Shown here one piece after another: positions 16,124-30,087 of a stretch of DNA of 64,000 bases. How positions within the stretch are numbered: the first letter of the stretch is position 1; each line of letters begins with the position of its first letter. The stretch is from contig JBFMGK010000003.1 in NCBI GenBank assembly GCA_040752575.1, positions 1-64,000 on the forward strand, in the 5' to 3' direction. The stretch is from Candidatus Bipolaricaulota bacterium. GTDB lineage: Bacteria > Bipolaricaulota > Bipolaricaulia > UBA7950 > UBA9294. Below the pieces are notes generated by a model, which saw only the letters and a program-made list of their open reading frames with translations, did not search any database and had not been told where the DNA came from. The position numbers were made by a program, and so were the translations under genes.

Positions 16124-19100
16124 TCATGCCACCCACCCCTCCGAAAGAGCCTCGGCCTGTTCGAGAACGGTCTCGGTCGCCTTGGCCTGCTTGTCCGGCG
16201 GGTAGCCGTACTTGCGCAGGATGCGTTTGACGAGCACGCGTAGCTGAGCGCGAACGTTCTCGCGCACGGTCCAGTCGATCTTGACGTTCTTCCGCACGGT
16301 GTCGGCCAGCTCGCGCGCGATGGTCCGCAGGGTCTCGTCGCCGAGCACCTTCACGGCGCTGTCGTTCGTCTCGAGCGCGTCGTAGAAGGCGACTTCGTCG
16401 TCGCTGAGCTTCAGCCTCTCGCCCCGCGTGTCGGCCTGGCGGATGTCTTTCGCGAGACCGATCAGCTCTTCGATGACCTCCACGGTCTCGATCGCGCGGT
16501 TCTGGTACTTGCGGATCGACTGTTCGAGCAGCTCGGCGAACGACCGCGCCTGCACGACGTTTCGCTTCGAGCGTGTCTTGATCTCGCCCGCGAGGAGCTT
16601 GCGCAGAAGCTCGACGGCGAGGTTCTTCTGCGGCATGCCGCGCACCTCGGCAAGGAATTGCTCGGAGAGAATCGAGATGTCGGGTTTCTTGAGACCTGCG
16701 GCGGCAAACAGGTCGACCACGTCGTCGGAGACGATGGCGCCGGAGATGATCTGCCGGATGGCGTGGTCGAGTTCCTCGTCGGTCTTGCGATCGACGGTTG
16801 CGCCCTTGGCGAGCACGGCGCGCACGGCCTGGAAGAAGCCGACGTCGTCGCGAATCGCGAGCGCCTGCTCGTGCGGCACGGCCAGAGCGAACGCCTGCGA
16901 TAGCTCAGTCACGGCGCGCAGCCAGCGTGCTTTTCCGTCCGCCTGCGCCAGGATGTGCTCCTGTGCCAGAGGCAGGAGCGCGAGCTTCTCCTGTGGCGTT
17001 CCGCTCACCCACTTCGCCCAGTTGAAGCCCGGAACGACGCCTGCTGGCGTCGGAAACTGAGCAAGGAGGCCGCGGCAGATCTCGTACTTCTCGAGGATCA
17101 GCGAGACGGCCTCGGCTTGGTCGATCGCTGTCTCTCCCGTCCCGCCGCTCTCGGTGTAGGTCGCAAGCGCGCGGCGCAGCTCGTCGGCGAGGCCGAGGTA
17201 GTCGACCACCAGACCGCCGGGCTTGTCGCCGAACACGCGGTTCACGCGCGCGATCGCCTGCATCAGGCCGTGCCCGCGCATTGGCTTGTCGACGTACATC
17301 GTGTGCAGGCTCGGCGCATCGAACCCGGTGAGCCACGTGTCGCGAACGATCACGACACGGAACGGATCGGCCGGATCGCGGAAACGCGCCGCCAGAACCT
17401 CGCGCTTCGGCTTATTGCGGATGTGCGGCTGCCAATCGAGCGAGTCGCTCGCCGAGCCGGTCATCACGACCTTCATCGACCCGTGCTCGTCGTCCGCGCC
17501 ATGCCATTGCGGCCGCAGCGCGGCGATCTCGCGGTACAGCTCGACGCAGATGCGGCGGCTCATGCAGACAATCATCGCCTTGCCTTGCATCGCTGCGAGC
17601 CGCTTCTCGTAGTGATCGACGATGTCGCGCGCGATGACCTTCACGCGCTGCGGCGAGCCGACGACGGCTTCGAGCTGGGCCCACTTCGTCTTGAGCTTCT
17701 CCTTGCGCTCGACCTCTTCGCCTTCGGTCGCCTCGTCGAAGTCGAGGTCGATCTTCGGCTTGTCGGCTTCGGCAAGGGCGAGCTTCGCGAGGCGGCTCTC
17801 GTAGTAGATGGGCACCGTCGCCCCGTCAGCGACCGCGCGCTGGATGTCGTAGACGCTGATGTAGTCGCCGAACACGGCGCGCGTGTTCTTGTCGGTCAGA
17901 TCGATCGGGGTTCCGGTGAACCCGATGAACGACGCGTTGGGCAACGCGTCGCGCATGTGGCGAGCGTACCCGTCGATGAAGTCATACTGGCTACGGTGTG
18001 CCTCGTCGGCTAGGACCACGATGTTCCGTCGGTCTGAGAGTACCGCGTGCTGGTCGCCGCCCGGCTCAGGAAAGAACTTCTGGATCGTGGTGAAGACCAC
18101 CCCGCCGCCCTCGGTGCGGAGCTTCGCGCGAAGATCGGCCCGGTCCTGGGCCTGCTCCGGCGCCCAGCCGACCACTTCGCGACAGCGCGAGAACGTGCCG
18201 AAGAGCTGATCGTCGAGATCGTTGCGGTCCGTGATGACGACGATCGTCGGATTCGCCATCGCCGGCTCAAGGATGATCCGTCCGGCGTAGAACGCCATCG
18301 TCAGGCTCTTACCCGAGCCCTGCGTGTGCCAGATGACGCCGACCCTGCGATCGCCGGGATCACCGCCCGGGCGGAGGCCTGCCTCGTAGCGCCCAGGCAC
18401 GTAGGCCGTTCGATCGTCCGGCACCTGCCGCGTCGCGCGCAGCGTCTCCTCCACCGCGGCGTTCACGGCGTGGAACTGGTGGTAGCCGGCCATCTTCTTG
18501 CTCGCAATGCCCGCAGCATTGCCGTCCTCGAAGACCACGAAGTGGCGAACCAGGTCGAGAAGACGCCGCTTGTCGAAGACGCCGCGCAGCAGGACCTCGA
18601 GCTCTGTCAGGCGTGCGCTCGCGTCCTCCTTCCCCTCGATCGTGCGCCACGGCTTGAACCACTCCCGCCCCGCACCCAGAGCGCCAATCCGCGCCAGCGT
18701 CCCGTCCGAGACGACAAGCGCCTCGTTGTAGGCAAGGAGCGCGGGGATCTCCGCCTGGTAGGTCTGGAGCTGCTTGTACGCCGTCCACACCGTCGCGTTC
18801 TCGTCGGCCGGGTTTTTGAGCTCAATGACCGCGAGCGGCAGGCCGTTCACGAACAAGACGATGTCTGGCCGCCGCGTGTGCTGGCCTTCGGCAACCGTGA
18901 ACTGGTTCACCGCCAGCCAACCGTTGTTGTTGGGGTCCTCGAAGTCGAGGACGCGAGCCTGATCGCCCGCAATCGGTCCATCTGGGCGCCGGTACTCCAC
19001 CGGGACACCCTTCACGAGCATGCGGTGCACGACGCGGTTGCGCTCAATCAACGAGGGCGCATCGACGCGCGTCAGCTTCCGGAAGGTGTCTTCGAGCGCT

Positions 19101-19303
19101 TCGGGCGGAAGCTGCGGATTGAGCTTCACGAGCGCATCGCGGAGGCGGCACTCCAGGACCACATCGCGGAAGCTGGGATAACTTCGCTCGGCATTGAGTT
19201 CTCCGGCCGCGATGGCGGGCCCGTAGAGCACTGCATAGCCAAGCTCTTCGAGCCAGGCGAGGGCAGCGTCTTCTACGACAGATTCCGTAAAGGCCCTAGC
19301 CAT
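16124..19303 (-). CDS. hsdR: Type I restriction endonuclease subunit R
   Basis: [20 protein letters not shown] nuclease motif, [36 protein letters not shown]. Confidence 0.97.
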
Positions 19304-19496
19304 GGCCTCTCAGTTCAGGCGAGCGCTTCGCCCGGCCTGCGTGCCGCCTCTCCCGTATCCGGCAACGGTTGCCGGATTCATTGCCGGATACTCCTCCGTT
19401 CAGGAGCGTTAGCCATGTATCCGGCAATCCGACCTTGCTTCGTTGCCGGATAGCCGGCACCGCAGAAGGAGCGCAGCCGAACCATGCGGTCCTCAT
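19296..19496 (-). other. Short linker ORF (66 aa) coupling the deaminase gene to hsdR
   Basis: ATG overlaps the deaminase TGA (ATGA); its TAG lies just inside the hsdR start. No recognisable domain. Confidence 0.35.
19355..19452. repeat. Cluster of five ATCCGGCAA motifs in mixed orientation
   Basis: Forward copies at 19355-19366 and 19417-19428; reverse copies at 19368-19378, 19380-19391 and 19442-19452. Confidence 0.8.
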
Positions 19497-20989
19497 CCTC
19501 GAAGCACCTCGTAGCGCGTCGCTCGCGCGCTTCCCACTCTCCGCAGCAACCCGAGCTCAGACAGGTGGCCAAGCTGGAAGCGTGCAGTCCGAAGCGGAAT
19601 TCCCATAGCGTCCTGGTATTCAGCCGTAGTCACGACCTCGCGCGTCGCCAGCCAGTCCCAGCCCGTTCGTTCTGCTTCGCTGAGCTGCGCAAGCATGTCA
19701 CCACGAGACTTCGGCAGGGCCGCCTTCGCTTCTCGGTACAGTGTCAGAACCACATAGGGCGCCTTGTAGGAGTAGGCCGGCAGAGGCATACCCGCCGCCT
19801 GCGCGCGATTCCTCATCGACTTCAACCCCAACCCTCTCTCCTCGGCAAGATCCAGCCTCGCGAACACAAAATGCAGAACAGGGTTACGACTCAGCATAGG
19901 CGCCTCGAATGCTTGCACCTGCTCGAGAGTCACTGGCTCCACAGGAAGCCCGGGGCTCCACACCTCAACTCTCTCCGGGGTCGCCACCAATTGACACTTC
20001 CCGCCGGCGATCTCGTAGTCACGGTGTACGAGCGCATTGACGATACCCTCGCGAATCAACTCGAACAGAGCCGCGTTCGACTCCCTGCGGCGAGCTTCGG
20101 ACCGGTCGATCGGGTTGGGCAGCTTGTCGCGGAGCCATTGCAGCGCCTGTTCGGGCGCAAGGATCTGCGGACCGTCGAAGTCACGCGTCTCTTCCCTTCC
20201 GTCAGGATAGTGGATCGTTCCAAGCAAGCCGGCTTGCGGCATGACCGTCCGCGGCTCCTTCCCGAACAGGAGGAATCCGTACCCGGTCGGCGTCCAGCGA
20301 CCGTCCTTCTCCGTCAGGAGGCCCTGCTGAGCCAATCGCCGATAGAAGGCCGCCGAGCCGACCTTGTCGCGCATGCCGGCCGTCGCCCAGTACATCTCCA
20401 GCGCCTCGTCTGACAAGTCGTCGGTCGCCGTGTTCGCGAACGCTTCTTCTAGACTGGAAAGGAGCGCGGCTTTCGGCTTCGCCTTCCGCGCGGCCGCCGC
20501 CCGCTCCAGCGCTTGCGCGATGAACTCGCGGTTCTCCTCCTGGATGACCTCTTGGAGATCGCGATCGAACATCCGGACCGTGACGCCGGTATCCTGGAGG
20601 TACTTGATCCCCTTGCGGTCGACCTTTGGATCGGGGTCCTCAATCCCGACCCAGACATCTTTGATCCTGGCATTCACAATCCGCTCGGCGCATCCAAGCT
20701 TCGGCTCGTGGCGAGAGCCAGGAGCGCATGGCTCAAGCGTCACGAACAGAGCAGCGCCATCGAGCCGGGCATCGCGGTTCTTCCGTTCGAGCAGCGTGTA
20801 CTCGGCATGATCGCCATCGCGCAACTCCCCGCGGCATGCCGTCTCGACCGTCCCGTCCGGCTTCCACAGCACGGCTCCGACGCGAGGACTCGCCTTGGCA
20901 TCCGCGCGCGGCTCGGCAATCGACTGTCGCATGACGTCGACAGCCAACTCCATCAGCTTGCGAGGATCTAGCTCAGCGGGCGGTGTCAT
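19493..20989 (-). CDS. Fusion of a RibD-like Zn deaminase, an HATPase_c_4-like domain and a winged HTH
   Basis: SPRVGAVL, HAEYTLLE, TLEPC-x11-C, EDPDPKVDRKGI; then REGIVNALVHRDY, VWSPG, SRNP, EERGLG; C-terminal wHTH-like LRRVGSARATRY. Own GAGGAG RBS. Confidence 0.85.
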   Translation of the reverse strand: MTPPAELDPRKLMELAVDVMRQSIAEPRADAKASPRVGAVLWKPDGTVETACRGELRDGDHAEYTLLERKNRDARLDGAALFVTLEPCAPGSRHEPKLGCAERIVNARIKDVWVGIEDPDPKVDRKGIKYLQDTGVTVRMFDRDLQEVIQEENREFIAQALERAAAARKAKPKAALLSSLEEAFANTATDDLSDEALEMYWATAGMRDKVGSAAFYRRLAQQGLLTEKDGRWTPTGYGFLLFGKEPRTVMPQAGLLGTIHYPDGREETRDFDGPQILAPEQALQWLRDKLPNPIDRSEARRRESNAALFELIREGIVNALVHRDYEIAGGKCQLVATPERVEVWSPGLPVEPVTLEQVQAFEAPMLSRNPVLHFVFARLDLAEERGLGLKSMRNRAQAAGMPLPAYSYKAPYVVLTLYREAKAALPKSRGDMLAQLSEAERTGWDWLATREVVTTAEYQDAMGIPLRTARFQLGHLSELGLLRRVGSARATRYEVLRG

Positions 20990-21127
20990 GTTTACGTTCT
21001 CCTCGCGGCCGCGGCACGCGCGACGCGCATCGCCCTCTTCCTCTTCTTCATCTTCATCCTCGCTATCTTCGTGTTCGGCGTGATCGTCGAGATCGTCATC
21101 GTCGTCAACGTCGTGATCTCTAGGTGT

Positions 21128-21610
21128 CTAGTCATTCCAGTGTGCCGCGATGTATCCGGCGATCCCATGGGCCGGATGGAACGCAGGGTAGGTTCTCTGG
21201 AAGGCATCCAGCGCATCGGCAAGCGAGGTCTTGGGCAAGGCCGAGGTATGCCGAAGCAGGTACAGAAATGCAATCCCCGGCCCGCGGGATTCGCCCTGGT
21301 TGCAGTGGACGAGGACCTTCTTCCCGCTCGCCAGCTTCTCATGGATGAACGCGATCGCCGCCTCGACTAGCTCCTCGTGGATGTAGGCTGGATCGTCGAC
21401 ATCGACAAGGTTGAGGTACAGGCGGTCGCCGCGCACTGCATGGAGGTACTCCGGATGCCCCTTCGGAGCTCCCTTCGTTGTGTAGCCGAGGAGCTGACGA
21501 TGGTAGGGCTCTTTGCACGTGTGGACGACGGCCCAACCTTCTCTGCCATCAACCTGATACTCGAAGTCACCCTGGTGGCCGACGAAGAGGTTGGCAAAGA
21601 CCTCAATCAT
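21128..21610 (-). CDS. Dual-specificity/PTP-superfamily phosphatase
   Basis: KVLVHCNQGESRG (HCX5R P-loop), NLFVG, LNLVD. Start trimmed to MIEVFANLF. Confidence 0.9.
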   Translation of the reverse strand: MIEVFANLFVGHQGDFEYQVDGREGWAVVHTCKEPYHRQLLGYTTKGAPKGHPEYLHAVRGDRLYLNLVDVDDPAYIHEELVEAAIAFIHEKLASGKKVLVHCNQGESRGPGIAFLYLLRHTSALPKTSLADALDAFQRTYPAFHPAHGIAGYIAAHWND

Positions 21611-21712
21611 GTGTCCCCTGCGCGACGTGCTCGGGATCATGCGGAACCCCATAGCGGAGGCGTACCAGCCGTTCGAGAACGATGCCTTCGTCTGGAGCCA
21701 CGGGGATTGTGC

Positions 21713-23428
21713 TCATGACGTCTCATCTACTATCGCTTCCGCACCTACTGGCATGCACGACTGGACCAGAGCGCGCAACGCCCGCAACCTGTCCTCCTTG
21801 ATGAGGCCAGTCTCGTAGTGGTATAGGACATGTTGGGGCTTCCTGTGTGGCGATCCCGCACGAGGGATCGCCAGGAAGGTTTCAAGCTCTCCCGGCACGC
21901 ACACGATCGCGGACGTGAGCACCGCATCTTTCGAATCCCGAATCAGCTGATTGAGGTCGGCGTGCTCGTCCCTACCATTGTCGTCGTCGTGAAGAACAGA
22001 GTGCGGTATCCCGAGGCAAGCCATGAGGTTCATGAAGCGGTGGATGTTGTACTTGCCGAGACCGTCCAGCACGTAGAGACCCTCCGGCAACCTCGGCACC
22101 TTCCCCGCGTCAACCAGCCTTCCTATCAAAGCCTGCTCGGTCGGCCCCTCTACGATCAGCACATGACCTGCGAAGAACATCCCGCAGCGATCCGGATTCA
22201 GCCACAGGAAGTACTTGAGTGCCTCCATCTCCGGCATCCAGTCCTCTTTCGCCAGCGCGTCCTTGAGCTTGGGCCACTTCACGGCGATCCGGTTCAGAGC
22301 CTGGTTCGCGTCAGCTAGCTTCTCCCAGGCGTCGCGGCTTATCTGCCGAATCATCACATGGCCGGACTCGCGCCGAAGACACGAGATGGTAGGAATCAGC
22401 GCTGCCTGACGACTCACGAAGTGCGACGAGTGAGTTGAGCAGAGAACCTGCTGGTAGCCGCCCGCTGACAGCTGCCGCAGGCTGTCAGCCAACAAGAACT
22501 GCTGGGGCGGGTGCAGGAACGCCTCCGGTTCCTCAAAGAGAAGGAGCGTCATAGACGGTGCGAAGTCCTTTGCCTTCTTGGACGGCTTCTTCGGCACGTA
22601 CTTCGCGCCCAGACGGATCAGAGTGTAGATCAGATGTCGCTGGAAGCCCGATCCGAACTGCTCAGCACCCAGCGGCGTCCCATGCGTCTTATCCAAGCAT
22701 CGATAGTCAAGAAGAGACTTGATCATCTCGGCCACTGAGGGCGACCTGAGATCTACCTTGAATGACGCACCCCAGTCCTGGAGGGCCTCCGTTAGCTCCG
22801 CCTCAAGTCTCTCGAGGGATGCGCCGTCCCGGGAGGTCTCAACCTTGATCTTCTCTGCGAATGTCTCGAAGTCGGCACAGAGCTTCTCATATGCGGGGCT
22901 GGACTGGACCGCTCCTTCGAGCACGTTGGTCAGAAGGTCGCGAAGAGCCGATGGCCCGCTTAGTTTCGTGTGCTCGTCGACCTTGCTCACGGCAGGGATG
23001 AAGACGATGTCCCCTATCTTGCCGCTCTGGACGTTCTTCGCACCGTAGAAGGACTCGGATGACAGGGTCCCGTCCGCCGCGTAGCCAAAGATGTAGCCTT
23101 CCTTGTCCTTCTCTGGCGACCTTAGGTACTTCCTCAGTCTGAGCGTCTTCTCCGCTGTGCGATATGTGTCGGCTAGGGATGCGTCTTCTGCATCCGTCAG
23201 CGCGAAGGTCAGCTCCACCCAAGCTTCCTCATCCGCTGGAGCAATGAACGGGAAGTCACGTTCCTGCTTGTACTTGAACCCGTCCTTCTCATAGACTGCC
23301 CGTACCGCATCAATGACCGTGCTCTTCCCAGAGTCATTGGCCCCTACAAGCAGGTTGTAGTCGTACAACACGACGAATGCGTCGTGGACGCCGCGGAAGT
23401 TGTGAATCGCCAGTGATGAGAGCTTCAC
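21713..23428 (-). CDS. OLD-family ATP-dependent nuclease (ABC ATPase + TOPRIM)
   Basis: IHNFRG, GANDSGKS, FGSGFQR, FEEPEAFLHP, STHS; TOPRIM IVEGPTE and HDDD. Confidence 0.92.
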   Translation of the reverse strand: MKLSSLAIHNFRGVHDAFVVLYDYNLLVGANDSGKSTVIDAVRAVYEKDGFKYKQERDFPFIAPADEEAWVELTFALTDAEDASLADTYRTAEKTLRLRKYLRSPEKDKEGYIFGYAADGTLSSESFYGAKNVQSGKIGDIVFIPAVSKVDEHTKLSGPSALRDLLTNVLEGAVQSSPAYEKLCADFETFAEKIKVETSRDGASLERLEAELTEALQDWGASFKVDLRSPSVAEMIKSLLDYRCLDKTHGTPLGAEQFGSGFQRHLIYTLIRLGAKYVPKKPSKKAKDFAPSMTLLLFEEPEAFLHPPQQFLLADSLRQLSAGGYQQVLCSTHSSHFVSRQAALIPTISCLRRESGHVMIRQISRDAWEKLADANQALNRIAVKWPKLKDALAKEDWMPEMEALKYFLWLNPDRCGMFFAGHVLIVEGPTEQALIGRLVDAGKVPRLPEGLYVLDGLGKYNIHRFMNLMACLGIPHSVLHDDDNGRDEHADLNQLIRDSKDAVLTSAIVCVPGELETFLAIPRAGSPHRKPQHVLYHYETGLIKEDRLRALRALVQSCMPVGAEAIVDETS

Positions 23429-24732
23429 GCTGCACTTCTCCTGTGCGATGAGCCGAATGCTCCGACCCGTATCTTGCCTGCTATGAGGTCTGGCAAGAGA
23501 GCGTCACGCGTTGCCGAAAGACTCCTGCTCTCGGATTCTCCACTGACGGCGCGCTCAAACCACGGTCTGACAAGCCCTCCGAAAGCCTCGGCACACTCCT
23601 GAGAGGGCATGGCCAGCATGAAGCGCGCCAGCGCCTGCGCGGGCACGCGCTGGCGACCGCTTGTACCAGTCATACTCTGAATTGCAGACTCCCGGAAGCC
23701 CTCCGAGCGAGCGAGGCAGTAGCCGAACTCAGGCGGCAGTGGCGGTCTCGGACGAAGCACGATGAACTCCGTGGACCCCCAGCCGACCTCACCGTTCCGC
23801 AGGAAGCTGACCAGAGCGGTCTTCCCGTTCTCGAGGCACGGCGTGATGCGCGCGACGAGGGTGTCGCCATTGGTAAACCGCACACCAGATCCGAAGGCAC
23901 GGTCAGCCACCTGATCGGGAACGTGTCCTCGGGTCGGCATATTGGCCATGTCAAGGTAGGGGGCTACATCGCCCTTCCGCAGCGCCCGGGGCGGGTTGAC
24001 CTCGATGACCTGACGAAGTCGCGCCACTTCCCACCCACTCGGTATTTCCCCCAACTCTGACTCCTCGAAGGAGTCGGGGAACAGGTCGGCGATGTGCGGA
24101 GGCAGGCCAGTGTCGCGGCCTTCCGCCTTGGCGCGGACGGGATCGAAGTCGACGAACCATGACTTGAACAGCGCCCGCGCCATCGCCTCAAGCGTCTCGT
24201 TCATCCGGCGGTTCAGCTCGATCTTGTCATCGAGCGTGCCGAGGATGTGGGCGATGGCGCGCTGCTCGTCGATATCCTCAGGGACCACGATCGGGAAGTC
24301 GGGCATCTCGATGAGGGGAATCCGGTCAACGGTGCTTCCGTGGATAGTCCGCGCCCGGAGGGTCTCCTGGAACTGCGGTCCGAGGTATGCATAGAGGAGA
24401 AACCGGTTGTCGATCCTGCCGGGCCGCGCTCGGAGGAGCCCCATCCGTCGCCCAAGGCAACAACGCAAGCCGTCAGGGACTAGCGCTGCCTCGCCTAGGC
24501 GCGTTTCGTAGGAGAAGACGACGTCGGCGGGCATGGGCTCCACCCGGCGCGTCCAGCGTCGATAATCCTCCTCAGAGAGATGTTCCGTCCGCGCTAGATC
24601 TACTCGACCGTTCGCCAGACACGAGATACCTAGAAACACAGGGCCGCTATCGGTCTTGGCCGGCGTCGCATGCGGCCCATCGAAGATCTCGGCGAGCTCC
24701 CCAATGGGCACCTCGCGCCACCTACTCGCCAT
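23425..24732 (-). CDS. hsdS: Type I restriction-modification specificity subunit S
   Basis: Two variable TRDs separated by [42 protein letters not shown]-terminal [13 protein letters not shown]. Confidence 0.95.
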
Positions 24733-24970
24733 GCCCCAGCTCCTTCATGTTCTTGGCGATCGCTTCGTCGAGCTTCTTTGCCTCTGCCTGTTGCTCCCGC
24801 AGCGACGCGATGAGCCGCTGCATCTCGTCGCCCTCGGCTTCCTCGGCACCGACGCAGCGTCCGATGGCGAGCAGGTGTTTCAGACTACGAAGCGGGGCGT
24901 GCCAAGCTAGTGGCGTCCGGAGTGTGGCGCGTGCATTCGTCGTCCATATCCGTGCGTCCGCCGTAATCAT
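24722..24970 (-). pseudogene. Chimeric short ORF ending in a degenerate second copy of the hsdM C-terminus
   Basis: [43 protein letters not shown] versus Hsd[50 protein letters not shown]; overlaps the hsdS start. Confidence 0.85.
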
Positions 24971-26750
24971 GTCCCTTTGCCTCGCGTTTTTCCCCCGCCG
25001 CCGTTTGGAGGATTTGGAGAAGTTATGGAGTCGGCGGTAACGGATCTGGAGCCCTCCATATCTCTTGGCGGCCTAACATAATGCGAGCCCTTCTTGACAC
25101 CTCTCATCTCAAGTTCGCTGCGCCTTACAAGCCTCGCCAGAAGATCGCGAGCCTGGTGCGAGGCGATCCGGCACAGGTCTGCCGCTTCGCGTCGCGCAAT
25201 ACGTCCATGCTTCTCGACGTATTGCAGCACCATCTGCTCCTGCTGGAGCGGCTCGAAGCCGCGCTGTCTCACGTAGCCGGCCTTGTCGCCCAGTGCCCGA
25301 TACGTTGCGGCCGACAGATGCCACGTGCGACCCTTCTTCTGGCCGCGCTCTTCGATGAGCCCCGCCTCCACGAGGTGATGGAGGATCGCCCGGGTGTCGG
25401 CTTCCGGCTTCTGAGTCAGCCTCGCGATTCTCGCTGTGTCGAGGCTCCGTTCCTGCCACAGGGCGTTGAGGGTGAGCAACTCGTCCAGGCTCATCACGCG
25501 CCCGCCTTGCGCCTCAGTGACTAGCAGACGCACGAACTCGAGATTGGCTTTTCCGCCGGGGATAACGACAACGACACCCGCAGGGTCACTGCGCGCATAA
25601 GATGGCGCTGGCCGACCGTTTCGCAGCTGCTCGTAGAAGATCGTGTCGATCCCGCGTGCCGTGCGCTCCACGATGCCCGCGCGTTTGAACGCATCAGCCA
25701 GAAGTGGATTGCGCGGCCGAGGAGCGGTTACGAGGAGGTTCCCCAGGTGCACCCCTTCGGGGAATCCTCCGGGGCTGCTGATCTCGATCCGGTCCGAATG
25801 CCACTGGAAATGCACGGCTCCGAGGCGCTGGTAGTCCCGATGGATGAGGGCGTTCGCGAGAGCCTCGCGCAGGGCCCGCTCCGGGTAATCCGGAATGCCG
25901 ACGCGAAGCAGTCCGACCATGAGTTCCTGCTCACGGTTCCGCGCGCGAATCCGCCCTTCGATCTCCTCCATCACACGCAACAGAGGCCAGCGAAAGAAGT
26001 CGTTGGTCTCGACGTCGAGCCCACGGAGGGCCTGAAAGGCAACCTCGTGGTTGGGTACGAAGCGTCGGAGCGACTCCTCCCTGGCGAACAGGAGCAGCGC
26101 GGCAAGTCGAACGCTCCGGGCGACGCCATTCGCCTCAACGACGCCGAGAGCCTTGGCAAGTTCGAGGTCTGGCAGGTCCAGTAGCGACTCGTCGCTCCGT
26201 CCGCGGCGTTCTCGGATGCTGCGACGGAATCGCTCGAACTCAAGTGGGTCGAGATCCTCCCACCGTGCTGGAGCAACGCTCTGCGCCGAGGGGTCCGTGA
26301 CACCCCGATCTGCCTGGAGAGATCCCATTGAGGTTGCGTCCATAGGGAGGCACGCCGGGCGACCGTCGCCACCAAGCGTTCGCCGCAAGAAGACGCCATC
26401 ACTCGTCCCGACGGGAACACGCTGCACGGGGATCTCAATGCAAAGGATGTCCTCGCCCTGCACTGGCACGACGTTGACCTGCACGGACAGGGCGGGGCGC
26501 GTCCGACCCGCAACCAGCGCCGCAATGCGGTCGGGCAAGGTCGTCGCACCATGGCGCGGCCGCGCGCCTGTGATCCGCCCATCGTCCTCGACGCCGACAA
26601 GCAGGTTCGCGGGCGCAGCTCCCACGCGGTTTGCCAGGCAGACAACCGCTTCGACAAGGTCGTGATCGTTCAGAGGGCACCGCTCTTCCCCCTTGAACTC
26701 CACCTCCAGCGACTCTCCAGCATGAATCAACCGCAGGAGTTCCGTCGGCG

Positions 26751-26754
<4 letters not shown>
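24967..26754 (-). CDS. AlbA_2 (Schlafen-like) + HATPase_c_4 + winged HTH protein
   Basis: [25 protein letters not shown] (AlbA_2); [41 protein letters not shown]; two C-terminal HTH-like segments. Confidence 0.9.
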
Positions 26755-28802
<2,048 letters not shown>

Positions 28803-29034
28803 GGCTAGCCCGCGGCCCGTCTCGCCGCCGCACACCTCCAGGACCGTCTCCGCGATTCTAGCGTAGGGGTAGGTGGAATCCAACACGGGGGAATGGGCGA
28901 GCAGGAATGCAGTCCTGTGGTGGTACGCTCCGCCGGACCAACCACGAGACTTGTCGAATGGCAAGCACCGCCATAGAGTCGCAACGTGACGCGGAACTGC
29001 ACCCACGCCCAGCTGCACACGATAGGAGGCTCTC

Positions 29035-30087
29035 ATGCGTACCGGGGTATTGATGTGCTTCGTCTCGCTCGTCTTCTTGGCCCATGGTTCCGTCGCGCAG
29101 ACGTCTGAAGACGGCCTTCTGCCAAGCGTTCAGCTCAGCCCGCAGAGCATCTACGGGTTTGGTCAGATCACCGACGTCGCCTGCAGCGGGCTCGGTGACG
29201 ACTTCTACATTGCTCTTACCAGCACTACACCCGACGAGGTCGCGCTCCTACAACACACGTCGAGCGGAATCGCCGTCAAGTTCCGCGCGGTCCTTGAGAG
29301 CTACGCAACGCATGTCGACGTGAGCGCGGCGGGCTCAGTGATTGCTCTCGTCGGAAGTACCCCGCGGGTGTGGTCTGCCTCAGGGCAAGAGCGGGCGTTG
29401 GCCTTGCCCAAAGAGGTTGCGAACGCAATCTACACTGGATTCACAGCAGGAGATGTCCCCTACGCAGTGGGGGTGCAGGCGACGCGATTCGTGTACTGGG
29501 ACGAAGCCAGCGCGGGCGTCCGGATCTCGCAGGACACTGGCGTAGACTTCGAAACAGGCACTGCGCCAACAGCTACAGACTTCGAAGAGGTCTCGCTGAC
29601 GTTTCTTGCAGTGCATGACCGGTGCCAGCTCTTCACCTGGATCCTCGGAGCCGGTACGGCTCCCCTCATCAAGACCGACCTGTACCTTGAGGCAGGGGGC
29701 TACCGCAGCAGTTTCGGTCGGATACTGGACGTGGGCCCTGCTGTTCAGTACATCGTTCTCGGCAACAGGACTACCGTTGGCGGGCTGTCGCGCCTGTACT
29801 CCTTCGCCCCGGCCGCAGCTTCCTACACTGCAATCAACACCTACGGTCTCGCGGATGTCAGTGAGGTTCGTATCAGCCCAGATGGCGCAACCCTATGGCT
29901 GTCTGGGCGAAACGGTGCCGACTTCGCCGTGGTCGCGCTCGATGCGATGACACTCCGCGCGTTACGCGGCTACGAAGAGCCGCGATCCGTCAGTGGGCTC
30001 ATCGGGGCATTCAGCACGGACGGTGCACATGCAGTCCTCGTCTCCGGGGGTAGCGTCGCTGTCTGGAGGATTGCCCCAGCGCCGTAG
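29035..30087 (+). CDS. Exported beta-rich protein, possibly a beta-propeller
   Basis: Signal peptide; [18 protein letters not shown] and VAVW blade-like motifs; more A/T at third codon positions than core genes by eye. Confidence 0.65.

Follow-up and report, generated by a model that had tools for sequence, protein, structure and literature searches.

Proteins that join a PF13749 (HATPase_c_4) ATPase to a C-terminal helix-turn-helix (HTH), and that keep the company of restriction-modification (RM) or BREX genes, have been described as Schlatpase-HTH (10.64898/2026.05.29.728809), pSlfn HisKinase-HTH (10.1101/2025.07.24.666596) and DIP2311 (PDB 3LMM). The Schlafen fusions seen most often are those with HisKinase and HisKinase-HTH, and the two genes reported as protective in the same preprint have other architectures (10.1101/2025.07.24.666596), while a Schlafen domain with a minimal histidine kinase and a winged HTH (wHTH) occurs beside BREX (PMC12839542). 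In the SLFN-pAgo protein RzAgo, PF13749 binds and hydrolyses ATP via E314/N318 and drives an active tetramer, the locked resting state being a nucleic-acid-held filament; the N-terminal effector is a tRNase and the C-terminal nucleic-acid sensor a guide-loaded Argonaute (10.64898/2026.05.29.728809). The present analysis concerns a related gene in a stretch of 64,000 nucleotides from a Candidatus Bipolaricaulota bacterium (contig JBFMGK010000003.1, positions 1 to 64,000; hereafter the window), namely the open reading frame (ORF) 19493..20989 on the minus strand, which encodes 498 amino acids (aa), and an array of short DNA sites next to it.

Based on its motifs and domains, the protein is predicted to be a zinc deaminase fused to a domain that acts as an ATP switch and to a tail that reads DNA; it would work like a Schlafen-GHKL-HTH protein without being one, and it is not a RibD either. 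It has in common with Schlatpase-HTH a PF13749 domain with ExxxN (E314 and N318) and a C-terminal HTH, but the Schlafen RNase (SLFN_AlbA_2) is replaced here by the deaminase. The likeness to SLFN-pAgo lies in an N-terminal effector, a C-terminal nucleic-acid sensor and the ATPase family with its ExxxN, an equivalence of motif rather than of alignment, whereas the sensor here would be a wHTH of fixed specificity with a genomic double-stranded DNA (dsDNA) array. The reading that we put forward, tentatively, is that of a one-gene anti-phage toxin locked on its own DNA array and freed when host DNA is destroyed, with array copies in phages acting as decoys.

The deaminase-scaffold protein and its possible substrate

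Every motif named in a first-pass annotation of this DNA was found (HAE at 61-63, C88-x11-C100, DPDP at 118-121, REGIVNALVHRDY at 313-325, SPG at 345, RNP at 368 and EERGLG at 383), and the domain order that it claimed agrees with the Pfam and AlphaFold parsing. The Pfam scan of the 498-aa protein assigned dCMP_cyt_deam_1 to residues 13-115 (E 7.8e-11) and HATPase_c_4 to residues 329-417 (E 2e-14), with weak matches to HTH_20 at 447-485 (E 1e-3, below its cut-off), Inv-AAD and MafB19-deam. Neither RibD_C nor SLFN_AlbA_2 (PF04326) was matched, in line with the earlier statements that the RibD reductase domain is missing and that a deaminase occupies the place of AlbA_2 on the same scaffold; the family profile also matched the scaffold protein DIP2311/3LMM over 232-418 (E 7e-20). 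The AlphaFold model (mean pLDDT 66.7) was good for the deaminase and for the wHTH, which is formed by three helices and a wing (pLDDT 76-90), but poor and unreliable for the ATPase part, whose assignment therefore rests on sequence. In structure comparisons, RibD deaminase domains were the best match (Z 19.3, root-mean-square deviation 2.4, 145 residues aligned), with TadA below them (Z 14.8), and ESM Atlas, queried with the deaminase part, returned generic dCMP_cyt_deam_1 clusters only, under 0.9.

The search for this architecture that the first-pass annotation had proposed yielded 3166 of 8000 scored candidates at E 1e-3, and both domains were present in 120 of 120 family members among the matches listed. 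Half of the 150 listed 50%-cluster representatives (75) were near full length and made up, with the query, an alignment of 76 rows. In these diverse rows E63 was kept in 76, H61, C88, C100, R53, D118, E314, N318 and N369 in 75, R93 in 72 and K97 in 69; since zinc ligands, catalytic and ATPase residues are kept in 75-76 of the 76, both active sites are under selection, and the zinc site is intact as had been claimed, in a RibD-like fold.

RibD and RibG are closest to the deaminase part by fold and share with it the zinc site of the cytidine deaminase (CDA) fold and the long C-x11-C insert. The protein differs from them in its fusion to an ATPase and a wHTH, in its accessory distribution and in the absence of a reductase and of a rib operon. 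Its TIGR00326 (RibD) score, 56 bits, falls short of the cut-off of 156, and a separate bifunctional ribD of 369 aa is encoded on contig C72 of the genome. Of 96 loci that were fetched, 77 hold the fusion, and no riboflavin family was found among the neighbours in these 77 (Pfam scan covering 287 of the 306 representatives of the neighbours, with the five best families listed for each). The RibD histidines are replaced in the family (Arg53 in place of His; Pro at C+2), and the conserved His of the CxxC insert listed in the table of PMC3239186 is absent, no insert His reaching 70%. A role in riboflavin synthesis was rejected on account of the absent reductase, the low RibD score, the separate ribD and the lack of rib neighbours, in support of the first-pass annotation. 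Another PF00383 match in the genome was considered as TadA and rejected on account of its CAE motif. It is very improbable that the gene encodes a deaminase of riboflavin synthesis, or that it is a selfish insert that serves no defence and only hitch-hikes in RM operons, even though its best sequence and structure matches are RibD and homologues with their arrays sit inside housekeeping operons of Bacteroidota (L068, L070 and L074: mraY/murD gap, before lysS, polysaccharide cluster), and such a reading would leave the phage copies of the array unexplained.

Bacillus subtilis RibG uses Asp101 and Asn103 to bind the 2'- and 3'-hydroxyls of ribose, and Lys79 to bind the phosphate (PMC8256712). 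In the alignment D118, D120 and R93 stand at these three places, and because the ribose-hydroxyl and phosphate binders of RibD are thus retained in the pocket, a ribonucleotide 5'-phosphate or RNA is suggested as the substrate rather than dCTP or single-stranded DNA (ssDNA); from the substrates listed in the first-pass annotation, the ribonucleotide and RNA candidates are favoured and dCTP, dCMP and ssDNA less so. The amine that RibD removes derives from guanine C2, for which reason a guanine nucleotide is our first guess, and tRNA may also be a substrate. A site-directed editor, brought by the wHTH to arrays where it would mutate nearby phage DNA or nascent RNA, could be imagined from a DNA-binding domain and a deaminase in a single chain and from the weak matches to Inv-AAD and MafB19-deam. 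It is nonetheless very improbable: the fold is nearer to RibD than to TadA, 75 of 76 rows retain the Asp that binds the ribose hydroxyl, such an editor would first attack the array of its own host, and phages would lose their sites.

Nucleotide deaminases with an anti-phage function include dCTP deaminase and RdrB of RADAR, and we know of none that is controlled by a cis DNA array. Together with Kongming KomA (PMC13728456), they resemble the present protein in nucleotide deamination as the likely defence output and differ from it in their domain partners. With PADLOC 2.0, no deaminase model matched, and the only two matches were to pAgo-associated models, on the scaffold part. The word deaminase is absent from the main texts of 10.64898/2026.05.29.728809 and 10.1101/2025.07.24.666596, whose available text does not mention a cis site array, and the available main text of PMC3239186 names no RecG, AlbA, Schlafen or wHTH. 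Searches of the open-access literature turned up neither the fusion nor the arrays, although the supplements of PMC3239186, PMC12839542 and both preprints could list the architecture.

The cis DNA array and the residue-to-base code

The array starts approximately 40 bp past the stop codon and holds five exact ATCCGGCAA sites with spacings of 12 and 62 bp, arranged in two units (Table 1); the remaining 21 copies of ATCCGGCAA in the genome are isolated. It lies, as do the phage copies described below, outside the interval covered by the first-pass annotation, which missed both. Among the 75 full-length genes with flanking sequence, a strict triplet of such sites was detected downstream of 57, upstream of four and inside none (shuffled controls, 0-1; random genome windows, 4/500), and a looser caller found sites behind 67. 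Of the other eight genes, seven carry an ERK(A/T)QR helix, and the site predicted for this helix, ATCCCGACA, precedes the start of each in units spaced by about 62 bp; the eighth has a degenerate pair. Overall, the array accompanies 74 of the 75 full-length homologues (67 downstream, seven upstream; array-less genes, 0-1 of 75), and its commonest spacings are 12 and 62 bp. Sites of this kind also directly follow six Schlafen-type genes (L093, L094, L260, L294, L310 and L319).

An array that is nearly obligatory but free as to side is more easily understood as a tether than as a terminator or a promoter operator. An ordinary autoregulatory or operon operator, with the effector cued by ATP level, a phage protein or RM inhibition and with phage copies that titrate or exploit the regulator, would agree with the wHTH being a transcription-factor fold, with the seven upstream arrays and with the frequent position of arrays directly before hsdR. 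We consider it unlikely, however, as most arrays follow the stop codon whatever gene comes next, including convergent genes and housekeeping genes (murD, lysS), only three exact cognate cores were counted within 400 bp upstream of 66 genes, which leaves no partner for a loop, and specificity is hypervariable (33 changes on a quick tree of 58 rows), which would be unexpected for a simple operator.

The correspondence between wHTH and site was analyzed over 58 genes under 85% identity and 450 columns, with the registers of the window, L007 and L025 set by eye beforehand. The two columns with the highest mutual information of all were R470, which tracked bases 4-5 of the site (z 13), and F471, which tracked bases 7-8 (z 17). 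When bases 4-8 were predicted by nearest neighbour, residues 466-472 gave the right answer for 42.7 of 58 genes (chance, 4), the best of all seven-residue windows (median 10.6); the deaminase gave 14.5, the ATPase 18.3 and the remainder of the wHTH 31.5. Pairs with an N-terminal identity of at least 65% that differ at 470-471 had the site in common in 0 of 99 cases, and pairs with the same helix at under 60% identity in 25 of 32. A single Myxococcota clade contains the four combinations (R-N with CGGCC, R-F with CGGCA, K-F with GGGCA, K-N with GGGCC), and for a K470/N471 helix the code predicts ATCGGGCCA instead of ATCCGGCAA. A held-out set of 55 further wHTH genes gave 46 site calls, of which 29 were exact and 40 within one base (shuffled mean 6, maximum 15); this set was found mostly through the site pattern, so that its site types are limited, and two rows that look mis-called (L006, L035) are counted as misses.

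The wHTH and the downstream array are linked and travel together, which limits the case for a code; evidence that linkage alone is an insufficient explanation comes from the upstream arrays and from the clade with all four combinations. L001, the closest homologue (84%), differs in helix and in array, and behind its array lies a leftover triplet of the window's type, so the 3' cassette is swapped. Regarding the earlier suggestion of an ATP- or DNA-gated deaminase, the DNA part receives concrete support from the matched cis array of each wHTH, and the control of activity stays a proposal.

Array copies without the gene and the proposed lock

In the genome collection the window's triplet was found seven times, four times behind a homologue (three with RTAR[F/Y], one being the leftover of L001) and three times alone. 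The general triplet gave at least 121 matches, 80 of which were fetched with long flanks and classified. Thirty lay behind a deaminase-scaffold gene, 11 behind a scaffold gene without a deaminase match (four of the Schlafen type, the rest cut or truncated), three behind a wHTH remnant and 11 with a scaffold piece elsewhere nearby, one had too little flank, and 24 were alone, with no scaffold gene nearby; ten of these 24 occupy RM or defence slots, where they adjoin hsdR, mod, RhuM, RadC, DUF499/pAgo, DUF3037 or DUF4276. Gene-less arrays are common, array-less genes are not, and arrays outlive the gene. At two loci linked to DUF499 or type III RM there is a pAgo, which comes after the gene in L082 and after an array without the gene in L323.

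At least 120 viral contigs contained the general triplet (controls: 0 reversed, 0 with period 14, 1 permuted), and they represent 43 independent contexts. One context holds 69 contigs (L188 and 68 related ones) in which the triplet comes right after the nrdA stop codon, with a site 62 bp on, before the gp25 baseplate gene; site positions are at least 90% conserved in this family, while spacers and the wobble positions of coding sequence reach 50-80%. An extra site at +61 to +63 was present in 12 of the 43 contexts (background, 0.1), and exactly one hairpin in 20 of 21 long viral records. No homologue or wHTH was found in the viral flanks (up to 2.5 kb at 80 loci, up to 300 bp at 40), and a wHTH profile, which matched in four of five bacterial genomes used as positive control, matched in none of the 21 records, seven complete ones included. 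Phage neighbours are mixed (tRNA clusters, nrdA, integrase, positions inside ORFs), with a tRNA within about 100 bp of the array at 5 of 35 viral loci scanned. Some viral records may be host DNA, L186 for instance having a ribosomal L7/L12 gene. On a 372-kb phage contig, two tRNAs with the amber-reading CTA anticodon lie beside an array (L127, 1321-1394 and 2405-2479).

These copies could also be read as the trigger: the wHTH would recognize an element that phages need (late-operon control, origin or packaging), assembling the ATPase and activating the deaminase, and the host's own copy would only tune expression or set a threshold, phage copies binding or titrating the protein. The C-terminal module of SLFN-pAgo does sense foreign DNA and activate an N-terminal effector (10.64898/2026.05.29.728809), the phage arrays are conserved in the 69-contig family, single-copy and, in 8 of the 26 long contexts, next to genes for structural proteins, and 94 of 129 phage sites belong to the 15 types, out of 64, that are seen in bacteria. 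Against this, the host gene has a cognate array next to it in 74 of 75 loci and would thereby risk activating itself, the 67 downstream host arrays could not repress a promoter, a phage-encoded binder was not found in the 21 records, and the phage contexts are very mixed; we regard a trigger as rather unlikely, but as the main rival.

A lock fits best because the array is near-universal, matched to its wHTH, placed on either side, longer-lived than the gene, and copied by phages in its exact geometry without a binder. In the proposed mechanism, the wHTH would bind 9-bp sites, several protomers assembling on each 12/12/62-bp array, and the array-bound assembly would be inactive. Phage nucleases that destroy host DNA, or loss of the island, would free the protein, and ATP would then drive its assembly into an active oligomer, the role that PF13749 has in SLFN-pAgo, a transfer of the RzAgo mechanism that we infer by analogy. 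The oligomer would deaminate a ribonucleotide 5'-phosphate or an RNA base and so stop the infected cell; phages would carry one array copy to re-lock the protein, and hosts would escape such decoys by swapping the wHTH-plus-array cassette.

Nucleic-acid restraint of a toxin and a phage-borne mimic of it have a precedent in type III ToxIN with the pseudo-ToxI repeats of phages. In type III systems the antitoxin is an RNA transcribed from tandem repeats that precede the toxin; the present sites, by contrast, occur in both orientations, mostly downstream, and track the wHTH helix. Retron Eco1 has an msDNA (multicopy single-stranded DNA) cage (cited in 10.64898/2026.05.29.728809), and Metis senses degradation of the host genome, ICP1 Gp145 being an antitoxin mimic (PMC13728456). 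The proposed model resembles ToxIN, retron Eco1 and Metis in nucleic-acid restraint, release on infection and a phage-borne mimic. It differs from them, and from Gp145, in that the restraint would be chromosomal dsDNA read by a wHTH of variable code, and not RNA, msDNA, a small molecule or a protein.

Several observations weigh against the lock. The sequence data allow either sign of the DNA effect, lock or trigger, and five or six sites hold few protomers, so that a lock would depend on tightly controlled expression or on the spreading of a filament. At the seven loci with the array upstream of the start, plain autorepression explains it, and orphan arrays may persist simply by abutting the start of the next gene. 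Independent tree pairs for the code number only 3-4 per trait and, although mostly in the expected direction, are not significant (p 0.125-0.25), and 29 of the 77 loci lack a defence neighbour. Regarding phages, a distant wHTH could escape the profile, only 7 of 21 records being complete, and the head, portal or baseplate genes beside arrays could mean that the arrays have a role in the phage itself. The inverted pair of the 69-contig family precedes a T-run and may also serve as a terminator; stacked multi-specificity phage arrays are not clearly enriched (5/43 against 4/96 control windows), and in cultured phages short blastn searches returned chance-level partial matches only, with no convincing triplet.

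Distribution, neighbouring features and implications

The gene is accessory and mobile, and the family is widespread and conserved. The deaminase-scaffold gene was present in none of seven genomes of the same genus and had a match in 4 of 24 of the same family, two of these matches being full length at 32-35%, and a quick protein tree mixes phyla. The claimed setting in a restriction operon holds, since the gene lies between a phosphatase gene and hsdR within a type I RM operon, and a defence-type gene was present at most three genes away in 48 of the 77 loci (Pfam-based labels; loci not independent, no housekeeping control), with an RM-type gene in 37, or 35-37 as two are doubtful (L003, L027). 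No plasmid fusion was found at E 1e-20 among 72,556 records; viral contigs gave one partial match to the fusion, and cultured phages only 14 matches to the scaffold part, at 25-35% identity. Some actinophages carry the scaffold without the deaminase part at 27-28% identity (H1-H12, including Mycobacterium phage Squirty gp31 and Gordonia phage gp38). Longer fusions of the deaminase (873-2490 aa) were not found at E 1e-15, which is weak evidence. Four homologues (P0144, P0159, P0171 and L080:7611-9452) have an extra N-terminal 120-180 aa without a Pfam match, and P0232 lacks the middle domain.

The minus-strand order in the window is hsdM (with DUF559), the AlbA_2-HATPase_c_4 gene, hsdS, an OLD-type nuclease, a dual-specificity phosphatase (DSP), the deaminase gene and hsdR (Table 1). 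The adjacency of DSP and OLD-type nuclease genes within the RM operon recurs in identical order in L001, and no fixed partner gene was found among the loci, the DSP phosphatase being common only to L001. Between the phosphatase and deaminase genes, low-complexity DNA with an acidic run in one frame (20992-21127) looks like what remains of a gene end that was lost. In the Schlafen-HATPase_c_4 gene, the stretch past the wHTH (24967-25100, minus strand) contains about five in-frame nTnTGGAG-like words, one forward and four reverse, which are possibly a site array of the Schlafen protein's own. On the far side of that gene, an 82-aa ORF (24722-24970, minus strand) repeats the C-terminal end of HsdM, as though the arrival of the Schlafen gene had duplicated the 3' end of hsdM. 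DUF559 lies in frame within hsdM (27240-27560, minus strand, residues 494-598 of the listed ORF) and also within hsdM- or hsdR-like genes of L021 and L283.

Table 1. Position of the deaminase gene domains, the array units and the surrounding genes in the window
Feature	Coordinates	Strand	Details
N-terminal RibD-type zinc deaminase, residues ~1-165	20495..20989	-	H61, E63, C88, C100; R53, R93, K97, D118
Linker/middle domain and PF13749 GHKL-type ATPase, residues ~166-420	19730..20494	-	low model confidence
Key residues of the ATPase region	19730..20494	-	E314, N318, H322-R323-D324-Y325, S345-P-G, R368-N369, E383, G388
C-terminal wHTH, residues ~430-498	19493..19700	-	recognition helix 466-478; specificity residues R470, F471
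Array unit 1	19419..19451		ATCCGGCAA at 19443-19451 (gene strand), inverted copy 19419-19427; middle site degenerate
Array unit 2, 62 bp further	19357..19389		direct ATCCGGCAA at 19381-19389 and 19369-19377 (period 12), inverted copy 19357-19365
hsdR, type I restriction subunit	16124..19303	-	downstream context
Dual-specificity phosphatase-like gene, CX5R motif	21128..21652	-	context; common only to closest homologue locus L001
OLD-type ABC ATPase-TOPRIM nuclease	21713..23428	-	context
hsdS	23425..24732	-	context
SLFN_AlbA_2-HATPase_c_4-wHTH gene, Schlafen version of the scaffold in the same operon	24967..26754	-	context
hsdM with DUF559 insertion	26751..29036	-	listed ORF probably begins upstream of the true start

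Taken as a whole, the locus is possibly, with the odds somewhat against it, a toxin-antitoxin-like defence in which the antitoxin would be chromosomal dsDNA, the effector a RibD-derived ribonucleotide deaminase, specificity a two-residue code and the phage copies decoys, and in which some members of the Schlafen-GHKL-HTH family, which is far larger, would be under the same lock. Control through an antitoxin made of DNA might then constitute a new category, a suggestion to be held with similar reserve. For the family, the residue-to-base code would predict the binding site of each member from its protein sequence, and a testable trigger is offered for the commonest, still unexplained prokaryotic Schlafen-type scaffold, GHKL plus HTH, while a deaminase derived from a vitamin pathway joins the candidate defence effectors. 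If the proposal is true, a non-coding DNA element of phages would represent a new kind of counter-defence, or else a new trigger made of DNA, and the protein would guard its own locus, firing its deaminase when that DNA disappears.

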